This document shows positions 8,339 through 45,498 of a stretch of 64,000 nucleotides of DNA, piece after piece. Both the position numbers and the translations under genes were made by a program. The stretch's first letter is position 1. Every line of letters begins with the position of its first letter. The stretch spans positions 662,774-726,773 of the forward strand of contig NW_003314264.1 in assembly GCF_000143415.4 (NCBI RefSeq), given 5' to 3'. The notes beneath the pieces are model-generated. The model ran no database searches. It was given only the letters and a program-made list of their open reading frames with translations, and was not told the DNA's origin. The stretch comes from Selaginella moellendorffii. Its lineage: Eukaryota; Plantae; Lycopodiophyta.

Positions 8339-8999
8339 AAGCTCTATTTCGTTAAAGTGGGATTTATTCAGTAAAATGGGACTAGGTACAAATTTTCAAG
8401 TATTTGAAAATGACGTGAAATTATATGTTTTTCGTCCAGGGGCTAGACATATCTGGGGCATGGTGACTAGCGCGGTGACTTTGTGTCTAGACTGAGTCCA
8501 TCTGGTTGTATAATAAATCTCATTGTCAAGGTGAACAAGCTGAATCTGAAGCTAAAGAAGAGCGATGGCATGCGTGCACACACTATTTTGTTTGTTCATT
8601 GAGCGTGTGGTGAGCTTTCCAAGATGAACGTCATTCCTATTAGCCAGACATATAACTTAATGGTGAGAACATTTAGATATTATTCAATGTTATCTTTTTC
8701 TAACGAATCTAATTGTGAAGGTGTAGCAAGAGGCATTGCTAGTCTGGAGAAGTCATTTAACTCATTTGACCCTTAGTGTATTTTCATGAAACTAAATAAC
8801 ATTCATATTATTAAGGAATTTCTCTAGTACCTTTTTTTTACGACATAGAGGCTTGCATTTCTTTTTAAGGTGATTTAGTAAAAGGCCTGAGGGCACATGC
8901 CATTCTATTTCTCAGACCGGTATTAAGATATACTAGTGCAAAGGGAAAAAGGTATTTGATGATCAAGTAAATGGCATGAGGGCACACGCCATTATAAGC

Positions 9000-9272
9000 C
9001 TAAGCGCTAGTGGACACCTCCTTTTTGGTACTCTCAGCGGTACTATCATCCTTCTCCAGGTCAGTTGTTTTGCTTTGGATTGTTGTCTCTGACGTTACTG
9101 GGGCGTTCTCGATAGTTGTTAATGTTGCCGTTTGTTCAGAAAAATGATCACTTGGAGTATAGTACGGGGAGTTTGGAAGACTTATATATTCTACATCTTC
9201 ACCTATCTCCTTCTCCGTCTCCTTTTCTGCCTCACTTACAGATTTTGTGCTTGCCATGAGAACGCTCTTCAC
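9000..9272 (-). CDS. Small acidic, S/T-rich ORF downstream of the transposase (possible terminal exon or third gene)
   Basis: Open in E1 and E2 (35933-36205) with biased composition; deleted in E3; no recognisable domain. Confidence 0.35.
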   Translation of the reverse strand: MKSVLMASTKSVSEAEKETEKEIGEDVEYISLPNSPYYTPSDHFSEQTATLTTIENAPVTSETTIQSKTTDLEKDDSTAESTKKEVSTSA

Positions 9273-9970
9273 CCTAAAATATGGAGTTCATTGTGTTATA
9301 AAAGGAAACCAACACACACGCTACAAGGGAATGATGGTACATAAAGCACGTAAGCCCACAATATGGGTTTATGTGCCATTAATATGGGCCACACGCCATA
9401 TTATTAGATTTATACACGTGTGATTGGTAAATGCATATGTCACATCATCTTTGTTTTACCTCACACACTATATCAGGCCTAATGAACCATATCACATGTG
9501 CGCACATGCTATATATATGGAGAAGTATTATGCAAGGATAGAAAAATTCAATGCATGATTGTGGAGAGCAATGGCATGAAGCCACATGCTAAATAACATT
9601 TTAGAGAAAGAATTAAAATAGAAACATGCAAACAGTACTGAGTGGACCAAGACTTAGAAGTGCACAATTGAATCAGGTATTTCTAATAAATATTTCACTC
9701 ACCTCATATAGGAATGGCTACCACTCTCAAATGGCGTATCACCTCATGCCATCACCTCGCAATTTGTTATAACAATCCGATGAATTCATATTCAGCTTGT
9801 TCACCTTGAACTTTAAGTAAGATTTGCTAGAACAACTAAGAATTTATACTTGTTATTTGTATCATCTCACCTAGGAATGGCGTAAGGCCATATGCCATCA
9901 CGCCTCCTCTGATTCAGATTCGGATTGTTCACTTTGAAATAAAATACATTAGAAACTTAGTAAAGGAATA

Positions 9971-12770
9971 TAAATGAATCTCACCTTAAACCCGGGTTAT
10001 AAATGCTCTTGCTGCATCTCTTGCATGGTCTGGCAAGGTGATGGTGGCACTCTGCTTCCGCATCCAACCATGCACAACATTATCCACCGATATGCTCATG
10101 CTGGGATCCCTTGGATTCATCACTCATCTCTTTTCTAGGCAATCCTTCGTATATTCGGAACTTGGCTTGAACCACTCCACAGTTACATTGAAGGAGTTAG
10201 TTTCCGCGTCCTCCTCTGCATCAGTGATGCAACGCCCCACCCATATCATTTGTTTTTTATTACTGGGTCTGACAAGCACGACCATTCCTTTGCAGACCTG
10301 TACTGGATTGAATGCTGAATCCAGCTTCTTGTTCCTCGGCCCACAATAGTGATCCTCAACATCGTTATCTGTCACTGCATTTCCAGAGGACATTGTTCCG
10401 CTACTATCTGGTGCTCTGGGTTCTGGCCAAAAGGACTCTTCCAATTCTTCATATACAACCGGCCCATTTTGGATAGCAGATATAATCTTCTCCCAGTATT
10501 CGAGCAAAGGCTTGCACCTCTGAAAATAGGATTCTCCACCAAACACCAACCCCCTCTTCCAGAAGGCAATATGCTGTCTAATCCCGGCCACTATACTTTC
10601 CTGGTCTTTGAGTCCATCCATGTGCATCGGCCGTGGGGAACCCTGAGGAATCATAGGTTCCCCAGTTATGGGATCTCTCTTGAAGAATTCAATGCCGTCC
10701 ACTGGCAGCCACACTATGTCCCATTCTCTCATCTTGTACCTCATCACTGGAGCACTGTCACGCATGCTGAAATGAAACTGAAGAGGCTTGGAGTGGCCAA
10801 TCAGCGTTTCGGATCCATCCCTGATGTAGCCTTTTACAAACCCCTTAAAGTCTGGAACCTCTGTCACAAGTGCAGCTTCAACAGTGCCTTTGATGCAATT
10901 TTGGAATTCATCGTAGAGTTGTGGGAGGGTGAGGACATTGGATCGCCGGAGGGACTCTGCCAGGTGACTAAACATGGCATCAACGTCTTCATGAGTGTGC
11001 CCAACCATGAGAAAGCCAAGTCTAACCGTTTCAAATATGCCTTTGGCAACAAGCATCGCCAAGTACGCGAAGACGTACATCTTTTTGTTCTCACTGCCAG
11101 CATTGTTTGTTTGGAGCAGAAGATGGGGTGGAAGGCCACATCGGCCGCAAGAACTTCCTTGAGATTCTGCTTCGTTTGGATGAGGCTGTGCATTCACCGG
11201 GCGACCAGCCTCGTCGGAATGGCATGAGGCCTCACGTGATAACCCTACAATCTGACGGCCAACATATTCACTGGGATGGCATGGGGCCCCACGCGATACT
11301 GCAAGCCTTTGCTCCTCCTCCAGCTAAACCTTGTATGGGGTTTGATCGACAAGGGCCTTATGCAAGGGTTGGCCGTTTAGCTCAGTTTGCGCACTTTGTA
11401 GAGACCTTAAGTGTTTTGCTAGGGATGCAATCATCATGTTTGCACCCCCGCCACCCCATAGAGGTCCAAAGAAGTTCCCATAGTTCTGGGCACCATGCCC
11501 ATGAGCGATTATGCCAAACAAAGACACAGGCACCTGCATGGATGAAGAGATTGCCTTGGGGGCAGGATTGAGTCGAGGTAAGCACGTCTTTTTTTGGTCC
11601 ATTTTGTCGTGGATGATGCAGAGGTAAGAGTCAGGTCTCTCCATGGAGAGAATCCTGTTATGATAATATGCAGTCCTGCAGCTTCTTTGCTCGATGTTGT
11701 GGTCGAGCCGCCTTCTAACCAACGTCTCTCGCTCTTGAGCGCTGCAAAAATTCTTCGACAAAGCCATTTTGATAGCAGTGCACTCATCACACTTTGAAAA
11801 GCTGGAGTACTTTCCTATACTCACATCCCTGAACCTGTTGCTCCACAATCTACTAAATCTAGATTGGCTCAGCTTCTTGTAGCCATTACTCTGGAGTTCC
11901 CGATTCACATCTTCCAATATGGCCCCCTTGGTATACATGGAAGGGAGAACTTGTTGGGTGTCTCGTGTTCCATCTTCCAAGAGGCGGGTTTTATGTGGTT
12001 GCTGCTCGCTACATGTCTCGACAAACCTCTTGAAGATTGCCTCTCCATATACAACATGACCTCTGGTTTTGTGCGTACCGTCGTTCCCATGGACTGTCTG
12101 TTGAACCCTTTGTTCCTTGAACTCAGTTTTGATTCTGTAAAATGTGGTTTGAGGGACTCCATAAATGATTCTCCATGCCTTCATGCAGACCAAACCCCTC
12201 TGGAAGACCATGCTCCCCACTTGATGTTCTGAAGCATCAACAGATGACCGTAATGCCTCATACACAAAATTGCGAGCTGCCTTCCAGGACAATGTCTTGT
12301 ATCTTGCTCTCTCCTCTTCAATAACATCCCAATCAGCATGTTGACAGCACCTCCTCTTGCAACAAGCAACTGTCGAGACAATTCGAACCTCCATCGCCAT
12401 TTTCTACTTTTTCGGTTTGTTGCTCAGATCCCTTTGGCTGCGCTTTAGGAAGGTGTACTTTCTTTTCCCATGAAGAGATGTTCTATCATCAGTTGTAGTG
12501 GTGTTTGAGTGTGAATCCTTCACATTCTCAAACACTAAGTGCCTCAATTTCCACCGCACAATGCTTCCAATAGTCAGACTGTTTTTTTCTGTGTCAACAA
12601 CCTCTAAAATCGCAACTCTAATATCATCCCAGCCCAATTCTTGATTAGCAACCGCATCTCTTGGATTGACAACTGTGGCTAAGCCCTCGATCCATAGACA
12701 CAAGGGTCCCTTTTGCAACTCTCTTCCCACCATTCAAAATATAAACCTTTTCTCCAACCCTGAAGGCCAT
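9971..12770 (-). pseudogene. E1 Sola-type transposase, disrupted
   Basis: Motifs CCKRRC, VCMKAWRIIYGV, SKCDEC, HDKMDQKK, LQTNNAGSENK, GHTHEDVDAMFS; ~269-bp deletion near 12690 and several stops (e.g. 11324). Confidence 0.85.
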
Positions 12771-15299
12771 TCTGAAAGTGCAGAAAAGAAGTTAAAACCA
12801 TACAAAAAATGATTGGAGAATGGCCTAAATCATAACATACCAAACAACCTCAATAGCATGAGGCCACATGCCATTATTCAAACATGCTATTGACACCCAC
12901 GTGAAATTTTGCATTCACAAAATTGGCATGAGGCCTTATGCCATCTTGATATACACACAGCTGCAGGCAAGTAAAAACATACATGACAATACGCTAGCCA
13001 TGAAATTGCAAGGGCCCAAGATGGCATGTGGCCTCATGCCATTTCTAAATGTGGTCCTAAGCCATTCCATGGTGAACATACCAGGAAGCACAATTGCCGA
13101 ATATCAAGAGGAAGCGGTAGCCACACCAAAGACAGTGCCGCTTGCAACACCGCAACTACTCGTAGCGCCGCTCGCAACACCGCAACTGCTTGTAGCGCCG
13201 CTCGCACAAACTGCCACTCGCATAAACTGCCGCTCGCAATGGCGCTCACAATGCCGCAACCGCTTATAGACGCATAAACCACAACTCACAACGCCGCTTA
13301 CACAAGCAGCGCTCACTGCGCTCAGCGGAACCAAGAACACGGCGCACAAAAATGATAGACCTAGGAATGAGTTCAAGAATTCAAAAATAACACACGCTTG
13401 AACGTCACATCAAATCCTCTGACAAACCAGATCTTATGATTCCTCTGACAAATTTCAAACTGAGTAGCTTCTAGACTTTGCTGTCGGAGGTTGAACTTTG
13501 TCACATCATGTCCTTGCCTCGATCCAGCTATGCCATGTCAGTGATTCGAACTTTGCCATGCCATGTCAGCGATCCGCGCCAAGATTATTCGCCGTGTAAA
13601 GGAATAATTATGCTGTGTGTGTACGTCCATTTATGGCAATATAAGGCCACACGCCATTCAAAGAATAATGCTAGTCGAGCATTTTTTGGTGCATTTTTGG
13701 GTTCAAAATTGCATGAGCCCACACGCTATAAAGTTTACCTGTACCAAAAATAGAAACAGCTTTATTTACTTGGGAATTTAAGTGGTTGAGGCATTTTTAA
13801 ACTTACAAACACATGCCCTACTTACATTCCTTTGGTTGCTTAAAATTCAAAAATATTATAAACCTTTCTTTTTGCATTTTCAATGTTTTCAATTATGGTT
13901 TTTGATTTTCGTAGGACCAGCCTAGTAATCTATTTGCATCCCGTCATGTTTATAGCTAGCTTTAGTTTGTCCCCTTCGCTAGCCTGAGATACATCTGCTC
14001 GGCATCTGCCTCTTACAGCATTTGCCCAGAAAGGGCATCTTTCTTCACGCAGCATTTGCCACATGTTTAGGGTTTAGGGTTTAGCAATTCAGTAGCTTGA
14101 TAAACATGCAGATACAGAACTTGATGCAAAATCCTTGATATGTCACAATGCCCCTAGGACCATAAACACATTTCAATAGAGAGGGTCTTTTCATTTCATA
14201 ACTCCTTACGTAGATCTTGGTGAAACCAGAGTTAGTAAAGTTGGTTTCTTGTGATCCCGCATCTGATTATGATGTCCCTTTGCAATGTCGATGGAAAGGT
14301 CAATGCACACCAAACTGTAAAATCTTGGAGCAAAATAACGGTCGGATCAATGGCAAATGCCCCTGAAACATTGTAAGGCTCGTGTGGTCTCATGTGGTGT
14401 CCGATCGAGATGCTTCTTTGCAGGGTCATCAAGAAAGACATTGTATACCATTCTGTAAAATCTAGTTGCGATCTAACAGTTGGATCTCCAGAAAACTCAA
14501 AAAAATCTCGCGCGTGTCAGAATATTCTAGGAATATACTCCTATGTGCCCCTAAAATTGGCATGCGGCCCCACGCCATTCAAGAGATAACGCCAGATGAC
14601 GCCGAGCATTTTTTGGTGCATTTTTTGGGATCAAAATTGCATGAGCCCACACGCATGAACGTCACATCAAATCCTCTGACAAACCATATCTTAATTCCAT
14701 CTATAATTCCTCTAACAAATGGTATACATATAGCGAGGGTATTAAATGATATCCCAATCATGATCTTTCTTTTGGATTTCGCGTGCATGCAGTCCGAGGA
14801 ATGATGACGTTGCAGATTTCTTTTGGATTTCACGTGCATGCATGCGCGCGGCGATCCAGAAATTAATGGTGGCGCCCAAGTCCGAGGAATGATGATGTTG
14901 CGGGATTACCAACCGTCGTGACATTTCGCGCGTGTGAGGTTAGGTTTTGCATCGTACTCGCGCTCGCATCGCGCTCCCACTCGCGATCACGCTCACATTC
15001 GCGCTCATCTACCTTCTCTACAGGTTTCTCGTGTGCATCGGCGTCCACTCGCGCTTGCATCACATTCGCGCTCGTGTGCATCGGCATCCACTTCAAGACA
15101 CACCCAGTTTGTAACTTCGCCGCCAACTCCGCTGCCCACTCCGCCACCCACACGCAGCCCACTTGGCGTCCCGGGAGATTTCAGCGCCACTCTCCAACTG
15201 TAAGTGGCAGAGTAGCCTTGTTGCTACGATCCGCTGCACACACAGTGCACATTCGCCAGTGAGTCCGGCCTTGATTGTCACGCCTCCATTCGGCTTCAA
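12771..15299. promoter_or_regulatory. Divergent intergenic/promoter region of E1
   Basis: Lies between the two ATGs; GC-rich short tandem repeats at both ends (13135-13330, 14770-15160); duplicated blocks (13401/14658, 13677/14604); central TTTAGGG tract; several palindromes. Confidence 0.6.
14066..14084 (+). repeat. Interstitial plant telomeric repeat (TTTAGGG)x2.7 / telobox
   Basis: TTTAGGGTTTAGGGTTTAG; equivalent tracts at 30853-30871 and 44154-44185. Confidence 0.85.
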
Positions 15300-18200
15300 A
15301 TGGTAAGTCTTTTAGGCCAAGTAGAAAATGGCATGAGGCCACATGCCATTCAGTAGCAACATTGGCATGCACTGATTGGGCTCTCGAGTGCAGTCCGGTT
15401 ACAGATGGCGTGTAGCCTCACACCATCTTAGGATGCAGCCTCAAGACATCTGATGTAGTGGTGAATGGCGTGTGGCCTCACGTTATTTCCAGCTGCTAGA
15501 TTTTCATCTGTCAGCTCTAATTGTTATGCATTTCTGAACAGGCGAGGAATTGTGTTCTTCTTCCAGCCACTGTCAATGTGGATGCAGAGAAGGGGGAGGA
15601 GCTCACCAGTTGGACTTTCGGGATGGAAGGCAAGGATCTGAGGCTGTACAACACAGATGGTGGGAGAAAAGAATGCATGAGGATCCTCATCCAAGTGACA
15701 GACACTCCATGCAGTTCCATGCAAGAATATGGACTGGCACTTGTGGTAGAGACAGCGTCCGCCTTCAAGATCCACCTTGCACATCCTAGTGGCTTCCCGG
15801 AGGGGGGCAGTGGCTATGAGGAATTCCTAGAGGGAGCTAGGGAGAGGTTGTCCAGGAGGCCCACAATTTCAAAGACGCTGCGGGTCTATGAAGATCACAT
15901 GGAATCCACGGACCTCACCTACGGCGATGTTCAAAAACTATATTCCAACATTGAGCCGTTGAGAGTGCCTCCAGTTCGCGAAGCGAAGGGGAAGGGGGTC
16001 GATCTGGAAACTACCCCGAAGCAGAAAAGGGTGGTCAAGCTCAAGCCGACGTCTGACTCTCCTGCTCCAAAAAAGAAGCTACTCGGTGATGCCATTGCCT
16101 CGGGTTCGAACACTACACCCACCTAAAAGAAGTGCCGCAAAGAGCAGAAAGAGCAAGAAGAGGCAGGAAAAATCATCGCAGATAATAGTACTTGTTACTA
16201 TTCCAACAAAGTATATACAATCGACGTGAGCCGTATCGACATCCAAAGCAAATACAACCACAGGCTAGTATCTGATGAGTGGGTGGAGAAACTGAAGCAG
16301 AAGATGCTGGCAAGTCCAGTAACACCCGACATCGCAGACGTGATCCCCTACTACCGAACAATAAAGGGCGAGACGAGGTTTCCAGACTTGATCAATAGGA
16401 AGGTGTTGGACGATCAAAACATCCGGTTCTATGCCGTCTCCAGGCAGCATTCTAGCTTGGTGATGCAAGAGATAGTTGTGGATATTATGGTGGGCGAGGA
16501 GGTGAAGAAAGTCTTCAAGACAAGAGTTGTCCGCCTGATAAAAGGCAACTCGCCCCTCCGATCTATCATATACATCTCCCACGCGCAGAATGTCAAGCAA
16601 GAAACGTGCTACAAATCGGGTCTGCACGAGACATTGGCACGAACACGGAAGCTCTGGGTTCAACTGAAGAAGCCACAAAAACCAGGACAAGGACGTGCAC
16701 TAGCAACTAGCGCCTGGCAGGTAAGCCTCGTTGCATGTGGCATAGCATGTGGCCTCACGCCATTTCCATTGCAGGAATTCTCGAGTCTTCTCTCGAAAAC
16801 ACTGGGGGTCAATGACACACTCAGCATCCATAACATTCTACTCGCGACAAAAGTTGTTTTTGACAAATGGGTAGATGTGCTAAGGAGGTACCATGACGGG
16901 GAGTTGCTAAACTCAATGGGTGTGGATGATGGCCGGAAGCCCAATGATTTGAAGCTCAATCCTTGCATTTCTCGCGGTCTCTAGACGACGACGACCTTCT
17001 GACAGTGGCTAATGCTCTTCTACTTGGTGAGGTAGTCTTCAACAAGACCAAAATGACTCCCGGCCATATTGTGACATACGAGGACTTGTGCACGACTCTG
17101 AGAGCTCGTGCGCTATTAAAGGATTGGATCTTCGAGCAAATGGCCGTGGAGAGGGTGAGCATCGACACCACGCAAGAGATGATGGAAGCGCTGGAGTTGT
17201 CAAATGAAGACATCGACGAGTACGTGAAGGGGGCCCCCAAGTTCATCAATCTGCTGCGGGATGCCACGAAAAGTAAATCTGAGAAGTTGGATCAGTATCC
17301 AAATTTCATTAAGAGGGATGTCGACCGCCAGCTTCAGAACAGCTCGACCCCGCAGCAGAGGCCTATCGAGAACCTTACCGGGTATACGTGAATTCGGATG
17401 AGGATCAAAGGTGGAGGAGCATCCTTTCCCCGCGGAGATGAGCAAGTCTAGAACATCTTTTGTGTGATGGACTTCACAAACGAGGAGATCACTCATGCAG
17501 ACGAAGTCAGCTCCATCATTGACTTAATGGTGGGACTTGCGGAGGTGGAATCTTCAGTCCACTATATGATCTACGAGTTCGAATCCTATCACAAGTTCTG
17601 GAAGGCCTTGAACGAGGTGAAGGCTCGGTTGAAAGGCAAGGAGATGCGGGAGATCCATGGGATAATGGCTAAGAAAAAGATACCGACGAATGTCCTCATC
17701 TTCACACTCGCCCTTGTTATTGGTCCTGCAGCAGAGTGGGACTGGAGTGACTTCCCAGCTTCATTCGACAAGGCCGATCGAATTGATCTGAGGGAGGTCA
17801 ATTTACCCGTGCCTGAGGAACTGAAGATGGCTATAGAGCTTTCGAATCCAAAGAAAGCTCTAGGTGCAACATGGGAAATGCTCAGCTGGGTCTTCAACGC
17901 AATAGCGGGTGGGTCACCTGCTTCCGACTCCAAGGGCAAATGCATTGTTGAGTACAACTGCGGCGGACTATTCTTTCGAGCCGCACTACTCAAGGGTGTC
18001 CCGTGTGTTGCGGTGACAAACTCCATTGAAGAGGTGACTTCAATGGAGCATATAATTACAATTGCCAAAGAAAAACAATATCTTCTCTGCGAACCTGGTG
18101 AGTACGCACTTTAAGTTTAAATGTTATCTCACAAGCTCTGTATGCAGGAGCGTGGCCACCCCCAGATGCTGAAACAGCGTTAACAGCTACTGTTGAAGAT

Positions 18201-20927
18201 ACCCATGTTGGGCCGAGCTCACAACCTGCACAAGGTAAGGTAACGTGAGGCCTCACGCCATTTTGATTATAGATCGTTGTGAATATTCAGACACGAGGAC
18301 TGAAAAGCGCACTGGTGGCGCATCGAAGAAGGACAAACAGACAAGCAATAGGAAAAAAGGAGGTACAAATTATATTTGCAATGGCGTGTGGTCTCATGCC
18401 ATTCCTTGCAGGAGACACTTCTTCAAAGGCAAAACAGGCAAGCACCAACCAAGCTCAAACTGACAATGGTCATAAAAAGCGAAAGCACGTTGGACAGTCG
18501 TCGGGATCAGAGGCGTTTGATTCGAAAAGGAAGAAGGGCAACAAAAAGATGATAGGTAATGCCTCGCGGTTATGGCGTGTGTGCTCATGCCATTCATTGC
18601 AGATCAAGGGTTGAGTGAAAGCAACCAGTCACCACCTTCTGACTCAGATTCCTATGGCGGACTCCCCTTCCCCAATCTCAATGGAGAGGTACAATGGATG
18701 AGGGATGCTTTTCAAGTCAGGGCCACGTTTTTCTCATCTCGTCGTCTTCGAAGGGTGCAAGAACGTGCAGAAACCATGTTAAGACAGTCGGGTGAGGATA
18801 CGGTCCTAGGTCACGCACTAAAACAGGCTATGGATGTCTTGTATTTTGAGATGGAGACTCGGCCAGATGATTTTTCCAAGATGGTCCTAGAAGAACAAGC
18901 CATCTAGCCTGAGCAGCCTATGGAAGAAATGCAAGAGGGGGATGAGGAGCCAGAGAAAGATAATGAGCAGGAAGAGCAAAAGGACGAAGAGGAGGACAAA
19001 GAAGAGGAGGACGAAGAAGAGGAGGACGAAGAGGACTTCGATGGTCCTCACAATGGTGACGATCACAATAACGACGACGACAATGATGATGACGATGGCC
19101 AGCCTGAGGTGGCCAAAGAGCAGTGGAGGAAGGTCATACAAGACAAACCATCAGGTAAATAATAGTACATCCATTCCTAACCTTTTACCATTTCTAACAT
19201 TGTCCATGTAGGTCGCAGAGCAAATGGTAAGTAGAGATTATTCAGTTGAATTAAGATACAAACTCTAGCCTTTAGTGTCGAGGAAGGATAGTGCCAAGCA
19301 AGGGTCGAAACGTATGTCCAATCCTTCAGAATCAGCAGTGTGCCCAAGTGATATCGGTCCTAGTTCCTCAATAGCAATTGATGGTAAATACAGTATAGTC
19401 AATTCAATGTGCTAATGAGTTTGTTTTTAATAGCCAGTAGGGAGGATACCATCTCAATCGAAGGGAGATATTTGGACATGCATATGGATCCGCCAGTGGA
19501 CTCTACTTGCCTGCAAGAGTCATCAGAGCTGGTGGAGGCTACTATCCATATCAACGCCAAGCAAGCTGACCACGCTCCACTTGATGCTCCCATACCACTG
19601 AGTCAATCTTGTCCACGTATCCAACTGATGGTGACCAGGCGCCATTGGACCCGCATGAGGCTGCCCCAGCCACCGAGCCGGTCGTATCCTCATTTCCAAC
19701 GGACTCAACGTGTGCCCAATCGTCTGACTACGCACCATTGGAACCTCCCTACACCGCCCCTGCTGCCTGTTCGGTCATGTCCACTTTGCCAACGGAGGCA
19801 CCAGCTGAAATGGCGTGTGATCACACGCCATCAGAACCACCCCATGCCACTGTTGAGCCAGTTGTACCAGAGTCTACAGCTGAAATGGCATGTGCCCACA
19901 CGCCATCGGATGCGATTGACCCCACATTGCAGAGGAGAGTATTTCCGCCCTTCACGTTTCCTCGACTAAAACCCTCTCAACGACCATCGGGAGCACCATT
20001 CGCTAATATTATAGATGGTAAAATTGACTTGTACCATTTTTTATGCTGACGCATTTCATTTCAGAGTCACGGCGAAGGTACTGTATCGTTTTTTATCTGA
20101 ATGGTGTCTTTTTCTCCCATGAGCGTGGCTCGTCCTTGAATGTCACTGCACCCTCCAAAGCCTGCAGTCGCAAGTTGGTCAAAAGAGACAGATTCACATT
20201 AATCACACGGGAGAAACTACGGGATCTAATAATGACCATGCGACACTTAAAACAAAGGGCCGGGTTCAATTTGCAATTGGGAGTTTGGACATCCATGATG
20301 CGCCACAATGCATTAACGTTGCTACAGATGATGCACGATCAGATGCGAGTAATATTACCATTTGAATTTCTCCTAACGCAGGAGGATTGCTTGACTATGG
20401 TCCATGTGAGGGGTAGCAAGCCCATCTTCGTCAAGCCAGAGGCTGTAGTGATGAACCGGACTGCTAGGTCACTTGAAATCCTCATCATCGATGACTCACC
20501 GATTAAAACTGTAGCGAACACGCACACATATGCAGTGCACCCCATCTCTTGCAGTATGGAAACTAGGGAGAAGAAACCATATGTTCTGGGGGACCTTGCA
20601 AAACGGCTTGGAGCGATGGTGATAGAGAACCAACCAGTCTAGGAGGTGGCTGCAGAAATCAACCAAATGGCAGATGGAACGGTATATCAGAAGCCATTTG
20701 ATCGGACAGACACCAGTCATCATTTATGGCATGTATATTGTCTAGCCAAGCACTATCCGCATCTCCATAATCTGCTCAACCGGATGGGTTCTTCGACCAC
20801 TGAACATGAACGTGGACGTATTAGAGAAGAGATGGCATTACTATTGGGTTTAAATCCTGATAGTGTGGAGAGTGATGAAATTCCAAGATTATTGTATAGG
20901 CGTTGGAGGCAAAAAATAACAGTCTAA
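15300..20927 (+). pseudogene. E1 cargo gene, 11 exons, ~1640 aa (ParB-like / MTase-like / histone-fold-like / acidic / FCP1-like), disrupted
   Basis: ATG 15300; GT-AG introns 15303-15541, 16721-16774, 18098-18147, 18235-18290, 18363-18411, 18556-18602, 19155-19211, 19227-19275, 19384-19433 and 20018-20064 join the ORF pieces in frame. This copy has stops and frameshifts (e.g. 16124, ~16960, 18905, 20640). Confidence 0.75.
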
Positions 20928-21369
20928 GATGGCATGTATTTATTTAAAAATGTAACTTATTATGGCATGGGGTTCCATGCCATTGTATTAATATTAAAAG
21001 ACAATTCTTTGAGAGGATTTGCATTATACTAGAAGTGTTACAGCATGTTATTGGAAGTCTCCGAAGTTGTTTTATTAATAAGGGGAAAGTAAAGATTGAA
21101 TGGGGACTTGGGCTCCACCTAGACTCGGAGCAACTGAGCCAATATTAAAAGGATGGAAAGAAATTGGACAACGATGACAAGGAGAAGAGAGAGGTGAAGC
21201 AGTGGCAGGGGGAGGAGAAGTGATTGAGTAAACATTTCCTTGTTTAAAATAAAATGGCATGTGCCTTAATGCAGTTGAATTTTGTTATATTTATATACTA
21301 TATAAAGGTTTGGAAACCTTATTTTACAAGTGGGATAATGACAATTCCCACTTTAACGAAATAGAGCTT

Positions 21370-23496: not shown

Positions 23497-23937
23497 AAGC
23501 TCTATTTCGTTAAAGTGGGAATTATCATTATCCCACTTGTAAAATAAGGTTTCCAAACCTTTATATAGTATATAAATATAACAAAATTCAACTGCATTGA
23601 GGCACATGCCATTTTATTTTAAACAAGGAAATGTCTACTCAATTACTTCTCCTCCCCCTGCCACTGCTTCACCTCTCTCTTCTCCTTGTCATCGTCATCC
23701 AATTTCTTTCCATCCTTTTAATATTGGCTCAGTTGCTTCGAGTCTAGGTGGAGCCCAAGTCCCTATTCAATCTTACTTTCCCCTTATTAATAAAACAACT
23801 TCGTAGACTTCCAATAACATGCTGTAACACTTCTAGTATAATGCAAATCCTCTCAAAGAATTGTCTTTTAATATTAATACAATTGCATGGAACCCCATGC
23901 CATAATAAGTTACATTTTTAAATAAATACATGCCATC

Positions 23938-26900
23938 TTAGACTGTTATTTTTTTCCTCCAACGCCTATACAATAATCTTGGAATTTCATCACTCTCCAC
24001 ACTATCAGGATTTAAACCCAATAGTAATGCCATCTCTTCTCTAATACGTCCACGCTCATGTTCAGTGGTCGAAGAACCCATCCGGTTGAGCAGATTATGG
24101 AGATGTGGATAGTGCTTGGCTAGACAATATACATGCCATAAATAATGACTGGTGTCTGTCCGATCAAATGGCTTTTGATATACCGTTCCATCTGCCATTT
24201 GGTTGATTTCTGCAGCCACCTCCTGGACTGGCCAGTTCTCTATCACCATCGCTCCAAGCCATTTTGCAAGGTCCCCCAAAACATACCCTAGTTTCCATAC
24301 TGCAAGAGATGGGGTGCACTGCATATGTGTGCATGTTCGCTGCAGTTTTAATTGGCGAGTCATCAATAATGAGGATTTCACTTGACCTAGCAGTCCGGTT
24401 CATCATTACAGCCTCTGGCTTGACGAAAATGGGTTTGCTACCCCTCACATGGACCATAGTCAAACAATCCTCCTGCGTTAGGAGAAAGTCAAATGGTAAT
24501 ATTACTCGCGTCTGATCGTGCATCATCTGTAGCAACGTTAATGCATTGTGGCGCATCATGGATGTCCAAACTCCCAATTGCAAATTGAACCCGGCCCTTT
24601 GTTTTAAGTGTCGCATGGTCATTATTAGATCCCGCAGTTTCTCCCATGTGATTAATGTGAATCTATCTCTTTTGACCAACTTGCGACTGCAGGCTTTGGA
24701 GGGTGCAGTGACATTCGAGGACGAGCCACGCTCATGGGAGAAAAGGACACCGTTCAGATCAAAAACAATACAGTACCTTCGCTGTCATTCTGAAATGAAA
24801 TGCGTCAGTATAAAAAATGGTACAAGTCAATTTTACCATCTACAATATTAGCGAATGGTGCTCCCGATGGTCGTTGAGAGGGTTTTAGTCGAGGAAACGT
24901 GAAGGGCGGAAATACTCTCCTCTGCAATGTGGGGTCAATCGCATCCGATGGCGTGTGGGCACATGCCATTTCAGCTGTAGACTCTGGTACAACTGGCTCA
25001 ACAGTGGCATGGGGTGGTTCCGATGGCGTGTGATCACACGCCATTTCAGCTGGTGCCTACGTTGGCAAAGTGGACATGACCGAACAGGCAGCAGGGGCGG
25101 TGTAAGGAGGTTCCAACGGCGCATAGTTAGACGATTGGGCACACGTTAAGTCCGTTGGAAATGAGGATATGACCGGCTCGGCGGCTGGGGCGGCCTCATG
25201 CGGGTCCAATGGCGCCTGATCACCGTCAGTTGGATATGTGGACAAGATTGACTCAGTGGTATGGGCAGCATCAAGTGGAGCGTGGTCAGCTTGCTTGGCG
25301 TTGATATGGATAGTAGCCTCCACCAGCTCTGATGACTCTTGCAAGCAAGTAGAGTCCACTGGCGGATCCATATGCATGTCCAAATATCTCCCTTCGATTG
25401 AGATGGTATCCTCCCTACTGGCTACTAAAAACAAACTCATTAGCACATTGAATCGATTATACTGTATTTACCATCAACTACTATTGAGGAACTAGGACCG
25501 ATATCACTTGGGCGCACTGCTGATTCTGAAGGATTGGACATACGTTTCGACCCTTGCTTGGCACTATCCTTCCTCGACACTAAAGGCTAGAGTTTGTATC
25601 TTAATTCAACTGAATAATCTCTACTTACCATTTGCTCTGCGACCTACATGGACAATGTTAGAAATGGTAAAAGGTTAGGAATGGATGTACTATTATTTAC
25701 CTGATGGTTTGTCTTGTATGACCTTCCTCCGCTGCTCTTTGGCCACCTCAGGCTGGCCATCGTCATCATCATTGTCATCGTCGTTATTGTGATCGTCACC
25801 ATTGTGAGGACCATCGAAGTCCTCTTCGTCCTCCTCTTCTTCGTCCTCCTCTTCTTTGTCCTCCTCTTCGTCCTTCTGCTCTTCCTGCTCATTATCTTTC
25901 TCTGGCTCCTCATCCCCCTCTTGCATTTCTTCCATAGGCTGCTCAGGCTGGATGGCTTGTTCTTCTAGGACCATCTTGGGAAAATCATCTGGCCGAGTCT
26001 CCATCTCAAAATACAAGACATCCATAGCCTGTTTTAGTGCGTGACCTAGGACCGTATCCTCACCCGACTGTCTTAACATGGTTTCTGCACGTTCTTGCAC
26101 CCTTCGAAGACGACGAGATGAGAAAAACGTGGCCCTGACTTGAAAAGCATCCCTCATCCATTGTACCTCTCCATTGAGATTGGGGAAGGGGAGTCCGCCA
26201 TAGGAATCTGAGTCAGGAGGTGGTGACTGGCTGCTTTCACTCAGCCCTTGATCTGCAATGAATGGCATGAGCACACACGCCATAACCGCGAGGCATTACT
26301 TATCATCTTTTTGTTGCCCTTCTTCCTTTTCGAATCAAACGCCTCTGATCCCGACGACTGTCCAACGTGCTTTCGCTTTTTATGACCATTGTCAGTTTGA
26401 GCTTGGTTGCTGCTTGCCTGTTTTGCCTTTGAAGAAGTGTCTCCTGCAAGGAATGGCATGAGACCACACGCCATTGCAAATATAATTTGTACCTCCTTTT
26501 TTCCTATTGCTTGTCTGTTTGTCCTTCTTCGATGCGCCACCAGTGCGCTTTTCAGTCCTCGTGTCTGAATATTCACAACAATCTATAATCAAAATGGCGT
26601 GAGGCCTCACGTGACCTTACCTTGTGCAGGTTGTGAGCTCGGCCCAACATGGGTATCTTCAACAGTAGCTGTTAACGCTGTTTCAGCATCTGGGGGTGGC
26701 CACGCTCCTGCATACAGAGCTTGTGAGATAACATTTAAACTTAAAGTGCGTACTCACCAGGTTCGCAGAGAAGATATTGTTTTTCTTTGGCAATTGTAAT
26801 TATATGCTCCATTGAAGTCACCTCTTCAATGGAGTTTGTCACCGCAACACACGGGACACCCTTGAGTAGTGCGGCTCGAAAGAATAGTCCGCCGCAGTTG

Positions 26901-29556
26901 TACTCGACAACGCATTTGCCCTTGGAGTCGGAAGCAGGTGACCCACCCGCTATTGCGTTGAAGACCCAGCTGAGCATTTCCCATGCTGCACCTGGAGCTT
27001 TCTTTGGATTCGAAAGCTCCATAGCCGTCTTTAGTTCCTCAGGCCTGGGTAAATTGACCTCCCTCAGATCAATTCGATCGGCCTTGTCGAACGAAGCTGG
27101 GAAGTCACTCCAGTCCCACTCTGCTGCAGGACCAATAATAAGGGCGAGTGTGAAGATGAGGACATTCGTCGATATCTTCTTCTTAGCCATTATCCCATGG
27201 ATCTCCCACATCTCCTTGCCTTTCAACCGAGCCTTCACCTCGTTCAAGGCCTTCCAGAACTTGTGATAGGATTCGGAGTCGTAGATCATATAGTGGACTG
27301 AAGATTCCACCTCCGCAAGTCCCACCATTAAGTCAATGATGGAGCTGACTTCGTCTGCATGAGTGATCTCCTCGTTTGTGAAGTCCATCACACAAAAGAT
27401 GTTCTTGACTTGCTCATCTCCACGGGAAACGATGCTCCTCCACCTTTGATCCTCATCCGAATTCACGTATACCCGGTAAGGTTCTCGATAGGCCTCTACT
27501 GTAGGGTCGAGCTGTTTCTGAAGCTGGCGGTCGACATCCCTCTTAATGAAATTTGGATACTGATCCAACTTCTTAGCTTTACTTTTCGTGGCATCCCGCA
27601 GCAGATCGATGAACTTGGGGGCCCCTTTCACGTACTCGTCGATGTCTTCATTTGACAACTCCAGCGCTTCCATCATCTCTTGCGTGGTGTCGATGCTCAC
27701 CCTCTCCACGGCCACTTGCTCGAAGATCCAATCCTTCAATAGCGCATGAGCTCTCAGAGTCGTGCACAAGTCCTCGTATGTCACAATATGGCCGGGAGTC
27801 ATTTTGGTCTTGTTGAAGACTACCTCACCACGTAGAAGAGTATTAGCCATTGTCAGAAGGTCGTCATCGAATAGAGACCGCGAGAAATGCAAGGCGTTGA
27901 GCTTGAAATCATTGGGCTTCCGGCCGTCCTCCACACCCATTGAGTTTCGCAACTCCCCGTCATAGTACCTCCTCAGCACATCTACCCATTTGTCAAAAAC
28001 AACTTTTGTCACGAGTAGAATGTTATGGATGCTGAGTGTGTCATTGACCCCCAGTGTTTTCGAGAGAAGACTTGAGAATTCCTGCAATGGAAATGGCGTG
28101 AGGCCACATGCTATGCCACATACAACGAGGCTTACCTGCCAGGCGCTAGTTGCTAGTGCACGTCCTTGTCCTGGTTTTTGTGGCTTCTTCAGTTGAACCC
28201 AGAGCTTCCGTGTTCGTGCCAATGTCTCGTGCAGACTCGATTTGTAGCACGTTTCTTGCTTGACATTCTGCGCGTGGGAGATGTATATGATAGATCGGAG
28301 GGGCGAGTTGCCTTTTATCAGGCGGACAACTCTTGTCTTGAAGACTTTCTTCACCTCCTCGCCCACCATAATATCCACAACTATCTCTTGCATCGCCAAG
28401 CTAGAATGCTGCCCGGAGACGGCATAGAACCGGATGTTTTGATCCTCCAACACCTTCCTATTGATCAAGTCTGGAAACCTCATCTCGCCCTTCATTGTTT
28501 GGTAGTAGGGGATCACGTCTGCGATGTTGGGTGTTACTGGACTTGCCAGCATCTTCTACTTCAGTTTCTCCACCCACTCATCAGATACTAACCTGTGGTT
28601 GTATTTGCTTTGGATGTCGATACGGCTCACGTCGATTGTATATACTTTGTTGGAATAGTAACAAGTACTATTATCTGCGATGATTTTTCCTGCCTCTTCT
28701 TGCTCTTTCTGCTCTTTGCGGCTCTTCTTTTAGGTGGGTGTAGTGTTCGAACCCGAGGCAATGGCATCACCGAGTAGCTTCTTTTTTGGAGCAGGAGAGT
28801 CAGACGTCGGCTTGAGCTTGACCACCCTTTTCTGCTTCGGGGTAGTTTCCAGATCGACCCCCTTCCCCTTCGCTTCGCGAACTGGAGGCACTCTCAACGG
28901 CTCAATGTTGGAATATAGTTTTTGAACATCGCCGTAGGTGAGGTCCGTGGATTCCATGTGATCTTCATAGACCCGCAGCGTCTTTGAAATTGTGGGCCTC
29001 CTGGACAACCTCTCCCTAGCTCCCTCTAGGAATTCCTCATAGCCGCTGCCCCCCTCCGGGAAGCCGCTAGGATGTGCAAGGTGGATCTTGAAGGTGGACG
29101 CTGTCTCTACCACAAGTGCCAGTCCATATTCTTGCATGGAACTGCATGGAGTGTCTGTCACGTGGATGAGGATCCCCATGCATTCTTTTCTCCCACCATC
29201 TGTGTTGTACAGCCTCAGATCCTCGCCTTCCATCCCGAAAGTCCAACTGGTGAGCTCCTCCCCCTTCTCTGCATCCACATTGACAGTGGCTTGAAGAAGA
29301 ACGCAATTCTTCGCCTGTTCAGAAATGCACAACAATTAGAGCTGACAGATGAAAAGCTAGTAGCTGGAAATAACGTGAGGCCACACGCCATTCACCACTG
29401 CATCAGATGTCTTGAGGCTGCATCCTAAGATGGCGTGAGGCTACACGCCATCTGTAACCGGACTGCACTCGAGAGCCCAATCAGTGCATGCCAATGTTGC
29501 TACTGAATGGCATGTGGCCTCATGCCATTTTCTACTTGGCCTAAAAGACTTACCAT
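23938..29556 (-). pseudogene. E2 cargo gene (ParB-like / MTase-like / histone-fold-like / FCP1-like), disrupted
   Basis: Same exon structure as E1; the 603-aa ORF 26741-28552 spans the ParB-like and MTase-like parts; retains the HAD-type motif IVFDLNGVL near 24750; stop at 28730. Confidence 0.75.
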
Positions 29557-32166
29557 TTGAAGCCGAATGGAGGCCTGACAATCAAGGCCAGACTCACTGG
29601 CGAATGTGCACTGTGTGTGCAGCGGATCGTAGCAGCAAGGCTACTCTACCACTTACAGTTGGAGAGTGGCGCTGAAATCTCCCGGGACGCCAAGTGGGCT
29701 GCGTGTGGGTGGCGGAGTGGGCGGTGGAGTTGGCGGCGAAGTTACAAACTGGGTGTGTCTTGAAGTGGATGCCGATGCAAACGAGCGCGATACGAGTGCG
29801 ATGCGAGCGCAAGTGTGATGCAAGCGCGAGTGGACGCCGATGCACACGAGAAACCTGTAGAGAAGGTAGATGAGCGCGAATGTGAGCGTGATTGCGAGTG
29901 GGAGCGCGATGCGAGGGCAAATGTGTGAGCGCGAGTACGAAGCAAAATGCAAAACCTAACCTCACACGAGCGAAATGTCACGACGGTTGGTAATCCCGCA
30001 ATGTCATCATTCCTCGGACTTGGGCACCACTACTAATTTCTGGATCGCCGCGTGCATGCATGCACGTGAAATCCAAAAGAAATCTGCAACGTCATCATTC
30101 CTCGGACTGCATGCACGCGAAATCCAAAAGAAAGATCATGATTGGGATATCATTTAATACCCTCACTATATTTATACCATGAATGATTGGATATTCCAAA
30201 GCATCTAGAAGCTACTCAATTTGAAAATTGTCAGAGGAATTATAAGATCTGGTTTGTCAGAGGATTTGATGTGACATTCAAGCGTGTGGGCTCATGCAAT
30301 TTTGATCCCAAAAAATGCACCAAAAAATGCTCGGCGTCATCTGGCGTTATCTCTTGAATGGCATGGGGCCGCATGCCATTTTTAGGGGTACATAGGAGTA
30401 TATTCCTAGAATATTCGTATATGCGCGAGATTTTTTTGAGTTTTCTGGAGATCCAACCGTTAGATCGTAACTAGATTTTACAGAATGGTATACAATGTCT
30501 TTCTTGATGACCCTGCAAAGAAGCATCTCAATCGGACAAGACATGAGACCACACGAGCCTTACAATATTTCAGGGGCATTTGCCATAGATCCGACCGTTA
30601 TTTTGCTCCAAGATTTTACACTTTGGTGTGCATTGACCTTTCCATCGACACTGCAAAGGGACATCACAATCAGATGCGGGATCACAAAAAACTAACTTCA
30701 CTAACTCTGGTTTCACCAAGATCTACGTAAGGAGTTATGAAATGAAAGGACCCTCTCTATTGAAATGTGTTTATGGTTCTAGAGGCATTGTGACATATCA
30801 AAGGATTTTGCATCAAGTTCTGTATTTGCATGTTTATCAAGCTACTGAATTGCTAAACCCTAAACCCTAAACATGTGGCAAATGCTGCGTGAAGAAAGAT
30901 GCCCTTTCTGGGCAAATGCTGTAAGAGGCAGATGCCGAGCAGATGTATCTCAGGTTAGCGAAGGGGACAAACGAAAGCTAGCTATAAACATGATGGGATG
31001 CAAATAGATTACTAGGCTGGTCCTGCGATAATCAAAAACCATAATTGAAAACATTGAAAATGCAAAAAGAAAGGTTTATAATATTTTTGAATTTTAAACA
31101 ACCAAAGGAATGTAAGTAGGGCATGTGTTTGTAAGTTTAAAAATGCCTCAACCACTTAAATTCCCAAGTAAATAAAGCTGTTTCTATTTTTGGTACAGGT
31201 AAACTTTATAGCGTGTGGGCTCATGCAATTTTGAACCCAAAAATGCACCAAAAAATGCTCGACTAGCATTATTTTTTGAATGGCATGTGGCCTTATATTG
31301 CCATAAATGGACGTACACACACAGCATAATTATTCCTTTACACGGCGAATAATCTTGGCGCGGATCGCTAACACAGCATGGCAAAGTTCGAATCACTGAC
31401 ATGGCACAGCTGGATCGAGGCAAGGACATGATGTGACAAAGTTCAACCTCCGACAGCAAAGTCTAGAAGCTACTCAGTTTGAAATTTGTCAGAGGAATCA
31501 TAAGATCTGGTTTGTCAGAGGATTTGATGTGACGTTCAAGCGTGTGTTATTTTTGAATTCTCGAACTCATTCCTAAGTCTATCATTTTTGTGCGCCGTGT
31601 TCTTGGTTCCGCTGAGCGCAGTGAGCACTGCTTGTGTAAGCGGCGTTGTGAGCTGTGGTTTATGCGTCTATAAGCGGTTGCGGCATTGTGAGCGCCATTG
31701 CGAGCGGCAGTTTATGCGAGTGGCAGTTTGTGCGAGCGGCGCTACGAGCAGTTGCGGTGTTGCGAGCGGCGCTACGAGTAGTTGTGGTGTTGCAAGCGGC
31801 ACTGTCTTTGGTGTGGCTACCGCTTCCTCTTGATATTCGGCAATTGTGCTTCCTGGTATGTTCACCATGGAATGGCTTAGGACCACATTTAGAAATGGCA
31901 TGAGGCCACATGCCATCTTGGGCCCTTGCAATTTCATGGCTAGCGTATTGTCATGTATTTTTTTACTCGCCTGCAGTTGTGTGTATATCAAGATGGCATG
32001 AGGCCTCATGCCAATTTTGTGAATGCGAAATTTCACGTGGGTGTCAATAGCATGTTTGAATAATGGCATGTGGCCTCATGCTATTGAGGTTGTTTGGTAT
32101 GTTATGATTTAGGCCATTCTCCAATCATTTTTTGTATGGTCTTAACTTCTTTTCTGCACTTTCAGA

Positions 32167-35100: not shown

Positions 35101-35234
35101 CCAGCATGAGCATATCGGTGGATAATGTTGTGCATGGTTGGATGCGGAAGTAGAGTGCCACCATCACCTTGCCAGACCATGCAAGAGATGCAGCAAGAGC
35201 ATTCATAACCCGGGTTCAAGGTGAGATTCATTAA
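32167..35234 (+). pseudogene. E2 Sola-type transposase (consensus ~1020 aa), disrupted
   Basis: 571-aa ORF plus 365-aa ORF; TAG at 33880, 1-bp deletion near 34058 and TAG at 35151; catalytic motifs HDKMDQ, LQTDNTGSENKN, GHTHEDIDAMFS. Confidence 0.88.
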
Positions 35235-35932
35235 TATTCCTTTACTAAGTTTCTAATGTATTTTATTTCAAGGTGAACAATCCGAATCTGAATCAGAGGA
35301 GGCGTGATGGCTTGTGGCCTTACGCCATTCCTAGGTGAGATGATACAAATAACAAGTATAAATTCTTAGTTGTTCTAGCAAATCTTACTTAAAGTTCAAG
35401 GTGAACAAGCCGAATATGAATTCATTGGATTGTTATAACAAATTGCGAGGTGATGGCATGAGGCGATACGCCATTTGAGAGTGGTAGCCATTCCTATATG
35501 AGGTGAGTGAAATATTTATTAGAAATACCTCATTCAATTGTGCACTTCTAAGTCTTGGTCCACTCAGTACTGTTTGTATGTTTCTATTTTAATTCTTTCT
35601 CTAAAATGTTATTTAGCATGTGGCTTTATGCCATTGCTCTCCACAATCATGCATTGAATTTTTCTATCCTTGCATAATACTTCTCCATATATATAGCATG
35701 TGCGCACATGTGATATGGTTCATTAGGCCTGATATAGTGTGTGAGGTAAAACAAAGATGATGTGACATATGCATTTACCAATCACACGTGTATAAATCTA
35801 ATAATATGGCGTGTGGCTCATATTAATGGCACATAAACCCATATTGTGGGCTTACGTGCTTTATGTACCATCATTCCCTTGCAGCGTGTGTGTTGGTTTC
35901 CTTTTATAACACAATGAACTCCATATTTTAGG

Positions 35933-45306: not shown

Positions 45307-45498
45307 ATGGCATGAGGCCTCATGCCATCTTTGGCCCCTGACAGCCTATTGCCATATTCCTTTTGCCTTGCTGCAACTTTATATATTTTTGTATGGGTGA
45401 CTAGTCACGCCCACAAAAATATATACAGTTGCAACAAGGCAAATGGAATATAGCAACAGGCTAGCAGGGGCCAAAGATAGCATGAGGCCTCATGCCAT
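45307..45498. repeat. 192-bp foldback bounded by two 22-bp palindromes (E3 only)
   Basis: Imperfect inverted arms centred on GTGACTAGTCAC (45397-45408); each end is an AT(G/A)GCATGAGGCCTCATGCCAT palindrome. Confidence 0.9.

Follow-up and report, generated by a model that had tools for sequence, protein, structure and literature searches.

The 22-bp palindromes that recur through a large DNA transposon in the analysed window (the whole stretch of 64,000 nucleotides, from a land plant) are probably parS-like double-stranded docking sites for the ParB-like cargo protein of the same element, and lie outside folded coding DNA. This reading was reached from the sequence: the arms of the sites show no covariation and related elements carry palindromes of their own in the apparent intron 1 of the cargo gene, which points to DNA sites for the cargo protein.

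Element copies and palindromic sites

Three copies of the element were delimited in the window, all of them decayed. Copy A (8339..21369, no strand assigned) is a 13.0-kb DNA transposon with 27–28-bp terminal inverted repeats (TIRs) and a 4-bp target site duplication (TSD), AAAT, at 8335-8338 and 21370-21373; copy B (23497..36865, minus strand) is inverted relative to A, 97% identical to it and without matching TSD; copy C (36875..49270, minus strand) has 96.5% identity to A, the TSD CTTT and a 942-bp deletion that took out four palindromic sites and part of a fifth. The decayed transposase gene (9900..12770, minus strand) encodes a DUF7869 (Sola-like) DDE protein (Pfam DUF7869, E 2e-43) with homologues in bryophytes; 0 loci were returned when it was queried against viral contigs. 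The element is a TIR DNA transposon with a DUF7869 transposase and a 4-bp TSD. Sola DNA transposons are described with short TIRs and a 4-bp AT-rich TSD, AWWT (PMC3627910); short TIRs and a 4-bp TSD were found here, AAAT of copy A fits AWWT while CTTT of copy C does not, and the Sola label follows the available text of PMC12477816, not a grouping with curated Sola1/2/3 proteins. Rfam gave no match below E 0.1 anywhere in the element.

Sites were scored with a matrix trained on 24 of them (consensus ATGGCRTGWGG-CCWCAYGCCAT). The scan returned 27 sites in copy A (8565..21275, without strand, in 11 clusters), where Markov shuffles give an expectation of 0.4, and none in the 25,191 bases of the window outside the three element copies. 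Their homes are UTRs, predicted introns and flexible linkers: 23 of the 27 are non-coding, and coding DNA, 59% of the element, holds the other four (P=2.7e-6). Nine sites lie in the cargo gene, seven of them in predicted introns (listed below), which account for 698 of its 5,629 bases (P=1.2e-6). The two coding ones (19810 and 19885, within 19810..19906, plus strand) are 75 bp apart with similar flanks in a P/S/T-rich linker, translate as EMACDHTPS and EMACAHTPS, and are a local duplication; several sites of the element form such near-tandem pairs with similar flanks, and single sites sit in unrelated flanks. The remaining coding sites, 11219 and 11276, belong to the transposase gene, where an insert of variable length in the catalytic region holds them. 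The nine cargo positions and both translations given in the initial annotation were confirmed, and its expectation of a non-random placement relative to the exon map, away from folded coding DNA, was borne out, the transposase copies likewise sitting in a variable loop. That coding copies occur only in the P/S/T-rich linker holds within the cargo and fails for the two in the transposase. The same annotation had selection spreading sites wherever tolerated: folded exons are indeed avoided, but the wording goes too far, since the long acidic tract and five introns just as small have no site. A limit on spacing explains the placement better, weakly and post hoc, the widest site-free gap in the element being 1,577 bp (P 0.013-0.063 against clustered nulls, P=0.37 against a uniform null).

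No selection on the sites could be demonstrated: among the three dead copies, 4 of 198 site positions vary, as do 15 of 539 other intronic and 206 of 4,859 exonic positions, with no excess conservation at sites. C-to-T decay in the three copies, measured outside sites, was 0.12-0.14 at CG and 0.09-0.10 at CHG at all distances; being no lower near sites, it leaves no trace of local protection, as far as an indirect proxy in three dead copies can tell. Half-sites vary separately, 16 of 26 sites having A-A or T-T at position 9/14, and position 6/17 combining as A-C (9), A-T (8), G-T (4) and G-C (4), and such independent variation fits a dimer site, not a stem. T at position 14 was seen in 4/4 small-intron sites and in 12/23 elsewhere, a difference that is not significant.

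Cargo gene, predicted protein and related loci

The cargo gene (15300..20928, plus strand, 11 predicted exons, ~1,640 codons) is divergent from the transposase gene and is a pseudogene in all three copies. With 10 GT-AG introns removed, copy B, in which it is least frameshifted, gives a single frame of ~1,640 codons interrupted by no more than 4 point stops and, close to its end, an 11-nt deletion; retention adds stops for every intron except intron 2 (17-80 against 14). All introns are predicted on the plus strand. Intron 1 (15303..15541, 239 nt) holds palindromes at 15328, 15405 and 15465; intron 2 (16721..16774, 54 nt), intron 4 (18235..18290, 56 nt, with an in-frame alternative acceptor at 18272), intron 5 (18363..18411, 49 nt) and intron 6 (18556..18602, 47 nt) hold one each, at 16742, 18240, 18381 and 18572; intron 3 (18098..18147, 50 nt) and introns 7-10 (19155-19211, 19227-19275, 19384-19433 and 20018-20064; 47-57 nt) hold none, so that the earlier count of five of the first six introns stands and becomes five of ten over the gene. 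In the ~50-nt introns 2, 5 and 6 the right arm of the palindrome covers the likely branch adenine (in CTCAC, 18 nt from the acceptor, in intron 2; at -16 in introns 5 and 6), and 9-11 nt separate the end of the site from the acceptor, as they do in intron 4 with the alternative acceptor. Intron 2 is 54 nt, in frame and stop-free, as had been noted; that its retention would be tolerated does not follow from this, its 18 codons lying opposite a gap in spliced homologues in the alignment. A phase-0 intron is apparent at its position in homologues 24-36% identical, as judged from protein and gene calls: at that point four unspliced gene calls end or read through, and an annotated liverwort protein continues. 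Three RNA runs (~12% of each) gave 0 reads across splice junctions; depth was at most about 2 over intron 1/exon 2 and nil or nearly nil beyond, and of the matched RNA reads 98-100% aligned only in part, to an rRNA-like piece of 40 nt. Contigs of run X1 span introns 1 and 10 unspliced, and also upstream non-coding DNA; they may be DNA and so are uninformative on splicing.

A ParB/Sulfiredoxin-like domain is predicted at 16190..16720 (plus strand). The cargo matched a ParB_N cluster (0.91) as well as phage ParB-N and N6_N4_Mtase clusters (0.78-0.80, taken as leads only), and the ParB region of the window family was matched to that of its relative L057 (hhalign 92%, E 5e-7), the model of which matches ParB/Noc (E 6e-5) with Z 10.3 to PadC and Z 9.0 to KorB; the putative fold is thus that of the L057 model, linked to the window family by profile match. 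In ParB CTP-dependent clamps, GxxR is the CTP-binding motif. Here it is replaced by SGQHS, without Arg, in copies B and C and most homologues, and by GGSHS in L057; with Ser in place of the CTP-binding Arg, clamp sliding is doubtful. The helical region that follows ParB-N reached Z 3.0-3.3 to the DNA-binding domains of ParB/SopB/KorB, a score matched by unrelated helical bundles, and forms together with a predicted beta-class N6/N4 DNA-methyltransferase-like fold the palindrome-free stretch 16775..18097 (plus strand). The methyltransferase assignment is suggested by a match of the cargo model to beta-class methylases (CcrM, E 1.5e-4; low-confidence model, pLDDT 52) and of the cargo homologue P0131 to PF01555; a Pfam scan of the window methyltransferase region gave no match. 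Active beta-class amino-methyltransferases have a (D/S/N)PP(Y/F)-type motif IV and an FxGxG motif I. Motif I reads EYNCGG in the window protein, a DPPY-like word is missing from it, and the motif-IV exon of L057 and L078 does not align to it. A NIF/FCP1-like HAD domain (20065..20928, plus strand, also without palindrome) has DLN in place of DxD. The methylase and phosphatase folds both look catalytically dead. Word-based protein searches with the cargo found nothing and a HMMER scan gave 12 matches, of which P0123 was dropped as a low-complexity artefact; a PDB sequence search with the ParB profile returned nothing useful, and the ParB alignment found 0 loci in metagenomes.

ParB-like cargo was found at 8 of 89 transposase loci (L057, L062, L063, L066, L077, L078, L079 and L085), many of the 89 being too short or decayed to tell; the plant-type cargo-bearing loci are mostly close kin (75-85% identical in the ParB region) and hence not independent. 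All seven scanned cargo-bearing loci (all but L079) have their own, different palindromes; those of L057 and L078 lie within the apparent intron 1 of the cargo, those of L085 in apparent introns of both its genes. L057 is a complete element with 26-bp TIRs whose 12 sites, found only in cargo intron 1, are all >3.6 kb from either end; like L078, it keeps the methylase motifs DIPY, QKP and DLFSGTG. Palindrome arrays were also seen at L001, L002, L008, L024 and L035, whose contigs do not extend far enough for a cargo to show; at L087-L089 palindromes are present and a ParB cargo was not detected.

Probable docking sites and competing explanations

The initial annotation had named no binding partner for the palindromes. 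If the palindromes are docking sites, a cargo dimer would read the two half-sites independently, as ParB reads parS, and the bound, perhaps spreading, protein would act on its own family only. Relatives with intact DIPY and FxGxG may use it to methylate element DNA (6mA or 4mC); here, with methylase and phosphatase apparently dead, it would be a binding scaffold, most likely one that keeps the element transcribed despite host silencing. An older intron 1 cluster would later have been joined by single sites along both genes, and ~50-nt introns could accommodate a site because its right arm doubles as branch point. A more far-reaching version, which we consider unlikely as a whole, makes the ParB-parS module a self-recognition grid: sites no more than 1.6 kb apart in micro-intron branch points and linker codons would let a dead ParB-methylase-phosphatase scaffold cover the element along its full length and protect it from silencing, the 22-mer being both docking and splicing signal and perhaps coupling binding to cargo splicing.

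The transposase itself might bind the palindromes, in transpososome organisation or in activating the element's own transcription. Arrays are common beside the DUF7869 family, also where no cargo is seen, the outermost sites of copy A lie about 225 bp inside one end and 95 bp inside the other, and an Arabidopsis transposase alone can activate its family (bioRxiv 2026.08.24.746577); the binding described in that preprint is at TIRs, however, to which the palindrome has no resemblance, and the complete L057 has its sites far from the ends, so that we hold this to be a minority prospect. Since palindromes also occur at loci without detected ParB cargo, cargo and transposase are not separable as binders. 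It is improbable that the small introns are carriers, created when a palindrome-plus-acceptor cassette was copied into the gene, as the initial annotation had offered among its alternatives. The near-constant distance from site to acceptor, shared by introns 2, 5, 6 and, if the alternative acceptor is used, 4, would suit such copying, and introns 2 and 6 share a 6-mer directly after the donor, but the 5' flanks of these two show no significant likeness (P=0.15), the five introns without a site match the site-bearing ones in size and branch spacing, and for intron 2, though not for introns 4-6, the position apparently common to distant homologues argues against it. A carrier origin is compatible with the docking-site explanation.

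RNA hairpins regulating cargo splicing, for instance by hiding the branch point, possibly as feedback, were another of the alternatives first offered, and the odds of this are lower still. The position of the right arm over the likely branch adenine fits, and the intron 5 and 6 sites form 8-bp sense-strand stems (-10.5 kcal/mol against -6.0 antisense); against this, the arms do not covary, the nine cargo sites having 7 G-U against 7 A-C pairs on the sense strand, the intron 2 and 4 sites fold weakly and better on the antisense strand, and 18 of the element's 27 sites do not fall in the cargo gene. Least probable, and very much so, are sites read by a host transcription factor or neutral duplication leftovers surviving where harmless: the near-tandem pairs such as 19810/19885 and the lack of excess conservation of sites among the three copies would agree with this, but the palindrome differs from family to family, as it should if the element encodes its reader, the host DNA (25 kb) has 0 sites, and single sites sit in unrelated flanks.

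Comparison with known systems

To our knowledge, very few transposons encode proteins that recognise their own body, VANDAL being the tested case. If docking is confirmed, land-plant mobile DNA would use bacterial partition-type DNA recognition, and binding sites could be overprinted on splice signals of very small introns. The element makes binding specificity and the purpose of the module directly testable: its candidate site is defined to 22 bp, its sister families have other sites, and it is itself a naturally methylase-dead version. The ParB-methylase plus Sola design and the binding hypothesis are already published for algae (2025), there as a proposal without experiments in the available text (PMC12477816; bioRxiv 2025.02.11.637652); new here is the land-plant variant with dispersed sites. 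No description of a land-plant ParB/Sola-type element was found in the literature searched, beyond which Iyer 2011 may cover green-algal and plant cases, and the available text of PMC4738411 and PMC12730594 does not describe the window element.

Sola1-1_Ec32 of Ectocarpus, compared by description and without alignment of the two transposases with each other, is likewise a large DNA transposon with a ParB-like/N4/N6 methyltransferase accessory gene on the strand opposite the transposase, proposed to bind and modify its own sequence; the available main text mentions no palindromes and gives no site map (PMC12477816). The window element differs in its land-plant host, lost methylase motifs and extra FCP1-like domain. 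Plavaka PAG3 of Bostrychia also combines a ParB-like accessory protein with inverted repeats, proposed as binding sites, but has another transposase superfamily, a ParB fused to a 2OG oxygenase and tandem arrays beside the gene (bioRxiv 10.1101/2025.02.11.637652), whereas the window element has single sites through small introns and coding linkers. For VANDAL21/VANC21 of Arabidopsis, binding and demethylation were shown experimentally; there, too, an accessory protein goes with family-specific short motifs in introns, intergenic and terminal non-coding regions, and these 9-bp motifs form tandem arrays of a single orientation within a MuDR element (PMC5735166). The window element shares the enrichment of family-specific motifs in non-coding DNA, yet has DUF7869 and a ParB/MTase-like cargo in place of MuDR transposase and VANC protein, and 22-bp palindromes with a ParB-like putative reader. 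Marchantia DN4MT1 has the same predicted methyltransferase fold but is a host gene with TSPPY, and ParB is not mentioned in the available text of its preprint (bioRxiv 2021.02.12.428880). CcrM, M.BceJIV and rotifer N4CMT, beta-class amino-methyltransferases, also share the fold modelled for the cargo, which lacks their catalytic motifs. Bacterial ParB reads palindromic parS sites. The window cargo differs from it in having no CTP-binding Arg, no confirmed HTH, no ParA partner seen and a eukaryotic host; with ParB-parS, Noc-NBS and KorB (PDB 7bnr, 7ol9, 6sdk, 8qa8) it shares, on the model of its relative, the ParB/Srx N-terminal fold, and the element, like these systems, has several palindromic sites on the same DNA.

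Placement of the palindromic sites

A matrix for the 22-bp palindrome was built from 24 sites of transposon copy A and gave 27 matches in this copy against 0.4 in shuffled sequence; the same search gave none in the 25,191 bases of the window outside the elements. Placement relative to the exon map was not random, as 7/9 sites in the cargo gene (the second gene of the element) were intronic (P = 1.2e-6), and 4 of the 27 element sites were coding, though coding DNA makes up 59% of the element (P = 2.7e-6). The initial annotation had the site coordinates and the linker peptides right. It had also placed the motif in five of the first six introns, and five introns do carry it, with introns 3 and 7–10 empty and the proportion hence 5/10. 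The P/S/T-rich linker, to which it had confined the coding copies, holds two; two more fall in the transposase gene, in an insert whose length differs by tens of residues across an alignment of 16 proteins. Since the two linker sites represent a single 75-bp duplication, the coding sites amount to two events only, and since about 69% of the cargo coding DNA is folded (approximate map), avoidance of folded coding alone is modest evidence. The placement pattern is genuine, and is best read as accommodation of putative protein-binding sites inside genes. The largest site-free gap in the element (1,577 bp) was unremarkable against uniformly placed sites (P = 0.37); with clusters merged at five thresholds, P was 0.013–0.063 for the largest gap and 0.02–0.25 for evenness. 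The coding site pairs sit at 0.46 and 0.53 of otherwise 3.0- and 2.4-kb gaps, and regular spacing along the element is suggestive, though post hoc.

Judged by their sequence, the palindromes are best taken as candidate DNA sites. Function as RNA hairpins, with which the good sense-strand folding of two intronic sites is consistent, is very improbable, because the degenerate positions of the two arms vary independently (position 9/14 is A-A or T-T in 16/26 sites and position 6/17 is mismatched in 14/26), G-U pairs on the cargo sense strand (7) equal A-C pairs (7), and two intronic sites fold better on the antisense strand.

Predicted cargo introns and candidate branch points

Ten predicted GT-AG introns (239, 54, 50, 56, 49, 47, 57, 49, 50 and 47 nt) join 15300–20928 into about 1,640 codons. 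Retention of any single intron except intron 2 raised the stop count from 14 to 17–80, the cargo frame of copy B was open throughout bar four point stops and, towards its end, a deletion of 11 nt, and the middle part resembled plant proteins of 1,673 aa that form one atlas cluster (score 0.92). Three RNA runs, where the element was nearly silent, yielded no junction reads for these introns, which are therefore predictions and not observations.

The right arm contains CTCAY, a form of the branch consensus CTNAY, whose adenine precedes the acceptor by 18 nt in intron 2 and by 16 nt in both intron 5 and intron 6. CTNAY lies at 17, 15, 19 and 16 nt in the site-free introns 3, 7, 9 and 10 and at 22 nt in intron 1; intron 8 has no CTNAY candidate. 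The palindrome adenine is the sole branch candidate in introns 2 and 5. In intron 4 its distance to the modelled acceptor is 36 nt, but shortens to 18 nt if an alternative acceptor, also in frame, is used. At such branch-like distances the palindrome likely doubles as branch point in the small introns, and the overlap offers a route to the origin of sites, branch motifs providing part of a half-site. That the introns instead arose as carriers of the palindromes is compatible with protein binding but improbable: although one 6-mer follows the donor in both intron 2 and intron 6, the similarity of their 5' flanks is not significant (P = 0.15). Comparison with homologues, at the protein level only, disfavours a carrier origin for intron 2, whose position looks shared, and not for introns 4–6; annotated homologues from Selaginella and Riccia show a gap opposite the 18 codons of intron 2, one annotated protein from Calypogeia has FQ-DW at the point where two relatives, both unspliced, continue into V, and two further gene calls terminate WK-V at the intron position. 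Intron 2 was thus probably not created as a site carrier. Elements of the L057 type, a related transposase locus, have no intron at this position.

Element copies, cargo protein and relatives

Copy A (8339–21369) is a 13-kb element with target duplication AAAT; copies B (23497–36865; no target duplication) and C (36875–49270; CTTT) are inverted relative to it. The copies are 96.5–97.2% identical, with terminal inverted repeats of 27–28 bp and 4-bp target duplications (A and C); their genes are all broken, and decay is biased to CG and CHG. The transposase on the minus strand of copy A matches DUF7869 (E 2e-43), with named homologues chiefly in mosses and liverworts. B and C are in tandem with 9 bp between them (36865–36875) and B lies about 2.1 kb from A; this tandem, the inversion of B and its lack of a matching duplication suggest local hopping or later deletion. 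An older repeat (79–82% identity) flanks the copies at 2642–4409, 21710–22945 and 60025–60282, into which A and C may have inserted. Some 60 bp upstream of the cargo ATG, the element contains a 40-nt rDNA-like fragment (15197–15236). It matches an abundant RNA (119–251 reads per run, nearly all partial matches) and, weakly (E 0.22), LSU rRNA at its 3' end (Rfam positions 3338–3373). Short telomere-type repeats between both promoters (14066–14083, 3/3 copies) also occur upstream of the transposase in relatives (L081:3615–3662, L066:3018) and are possibly telo-box promoter elements. Host DNA includes an intact-looking PPR gene (553 aa, 54425–56086, minus strand) and a DUF1853 ORF (53169–53795, minus strand).

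The cargo protein consists of an unknown N-terminal domain, a ParB-like domain, a helical region, a methyltransferase fold, a long acidic and P/S/T-rich linker and a NIF/FCP1-like domain (E 6e-5; DLN in place of DxD). Profile comparison linked the ParB region to cargo proteins of related elements (92%, E 5e-7), and the relatives' model (pLDDT 72) matched ParB, Noc, KorB and sulfiredoxin; the CTP-binding Arg of ParB is replaced, and structure comparison of the model did not confirm an HTH. For the middle 603 residues, a model of low confidence (pLDDT 52) resembled beta-class N6/N4 methylases (seven matches at E up to 0.001) and a homologue matches PF01555; the window protein has no DPPY-type motif, no FxGxG motif and no Pfam match in this region. 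The best cargo match is a Selaginella protein, which, together with the nearby PPR gene and the CG and CHG bias of decay, fits a land-plant and probably seed-free host. In S. moellendorffii, P0121 (SELMODRAFT_409495 and kin) comprises the helical region and dead methylase and lacks most of ParB-N, possibly as domesticated or truncated cargo. Among named atlas clusters, fungal DUF3723 ones look most like the ParB-like domain (16199–16720; 0.93–0.94), a hint that DUF3723, a Starship accessory domain, is itself ParB-like. The literature search found no paper combining DUF3723 and ParB.

Relatives were sought among 89 transposase loci: 9 from genome bins and, of 520 metagenomic loci, the best 80. 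ParB-like cargo lies beside the transposase in 8, many others being too short or decayed to tell. Cargo of L057 and L078 retains DIPY, QKP and DLFSGTG. Each family has its own palindrome. L057 is complete (TIRs of 26 bp); its 12 sites are confined to the apparent intron 1 of the cargo, and the later small introns and the regions near the element ends have none. The 2 sites of L078 are likewise in apparent intron 1. In L085, which lies in animal-like DNA, a different palindrome occurs 30 times, within apparent introns of the transposase and cargo genes alike. In L081 sites flank the transposase on both sides, and a downstream fragment looks methylase-like by eye, though it has no relevant match in Pfam. 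In L087 and L088 (3866–7002), distant relatives, a GATC-bearing palindrome clusters between several downstream accessory ORFs. L085 (intron-bearing), L081 (telomere-type repeats) and L082 (transposase match only) are eukaryote-type transposons on contigs in bacterial bins, probably by contamination.

Candidate binding protein and known systems

We lean towards the cargo protein binding the palindromes as a dimer, by which it would recognise its own family. In intact relatives the bound DNA would be methylated by the cargo; the derived window form would act as a scaffold that may spread and probably favours expression. A strict link between palindrome and cargo is opposed by L087–L089, where palindromes are present and ParB cargo was not detected, and by the plant cargo loci being mostly close kin. 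Binding by the transposase is unlikely. C-to-T decay was flat with distance from the sites, which does not support protection, although dead copies need not be protected; that a host factor reads the palindromes, or that they are neutral, is the least probable of these readings. The proposed cargo binding has published counterparts. The Sola1 element of Ectocarpus has an opposite-strand gene for ParB plus an N4/N6-methyltransferase with self-binding suggested (PMC12477816), inverted-repeat arrays adjoin a ParB-like accessory gene in Bostrychia, with self-binding likewise proposed (bioRxiv 10.1101/2025.02.11.637652), and in VANDAL21 the introns and intergenic parts contain motifs bound by VANC21 (PMC5735166). 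Within a literature search whose scope excluded supplements and Iyer 2011, no land-plant case, no site dispersal into micro-introns and no branch-point overlap were found. The window element would be a land-plant form of this recently proposed ParB-cargo self-binding design, with dispersed sites.
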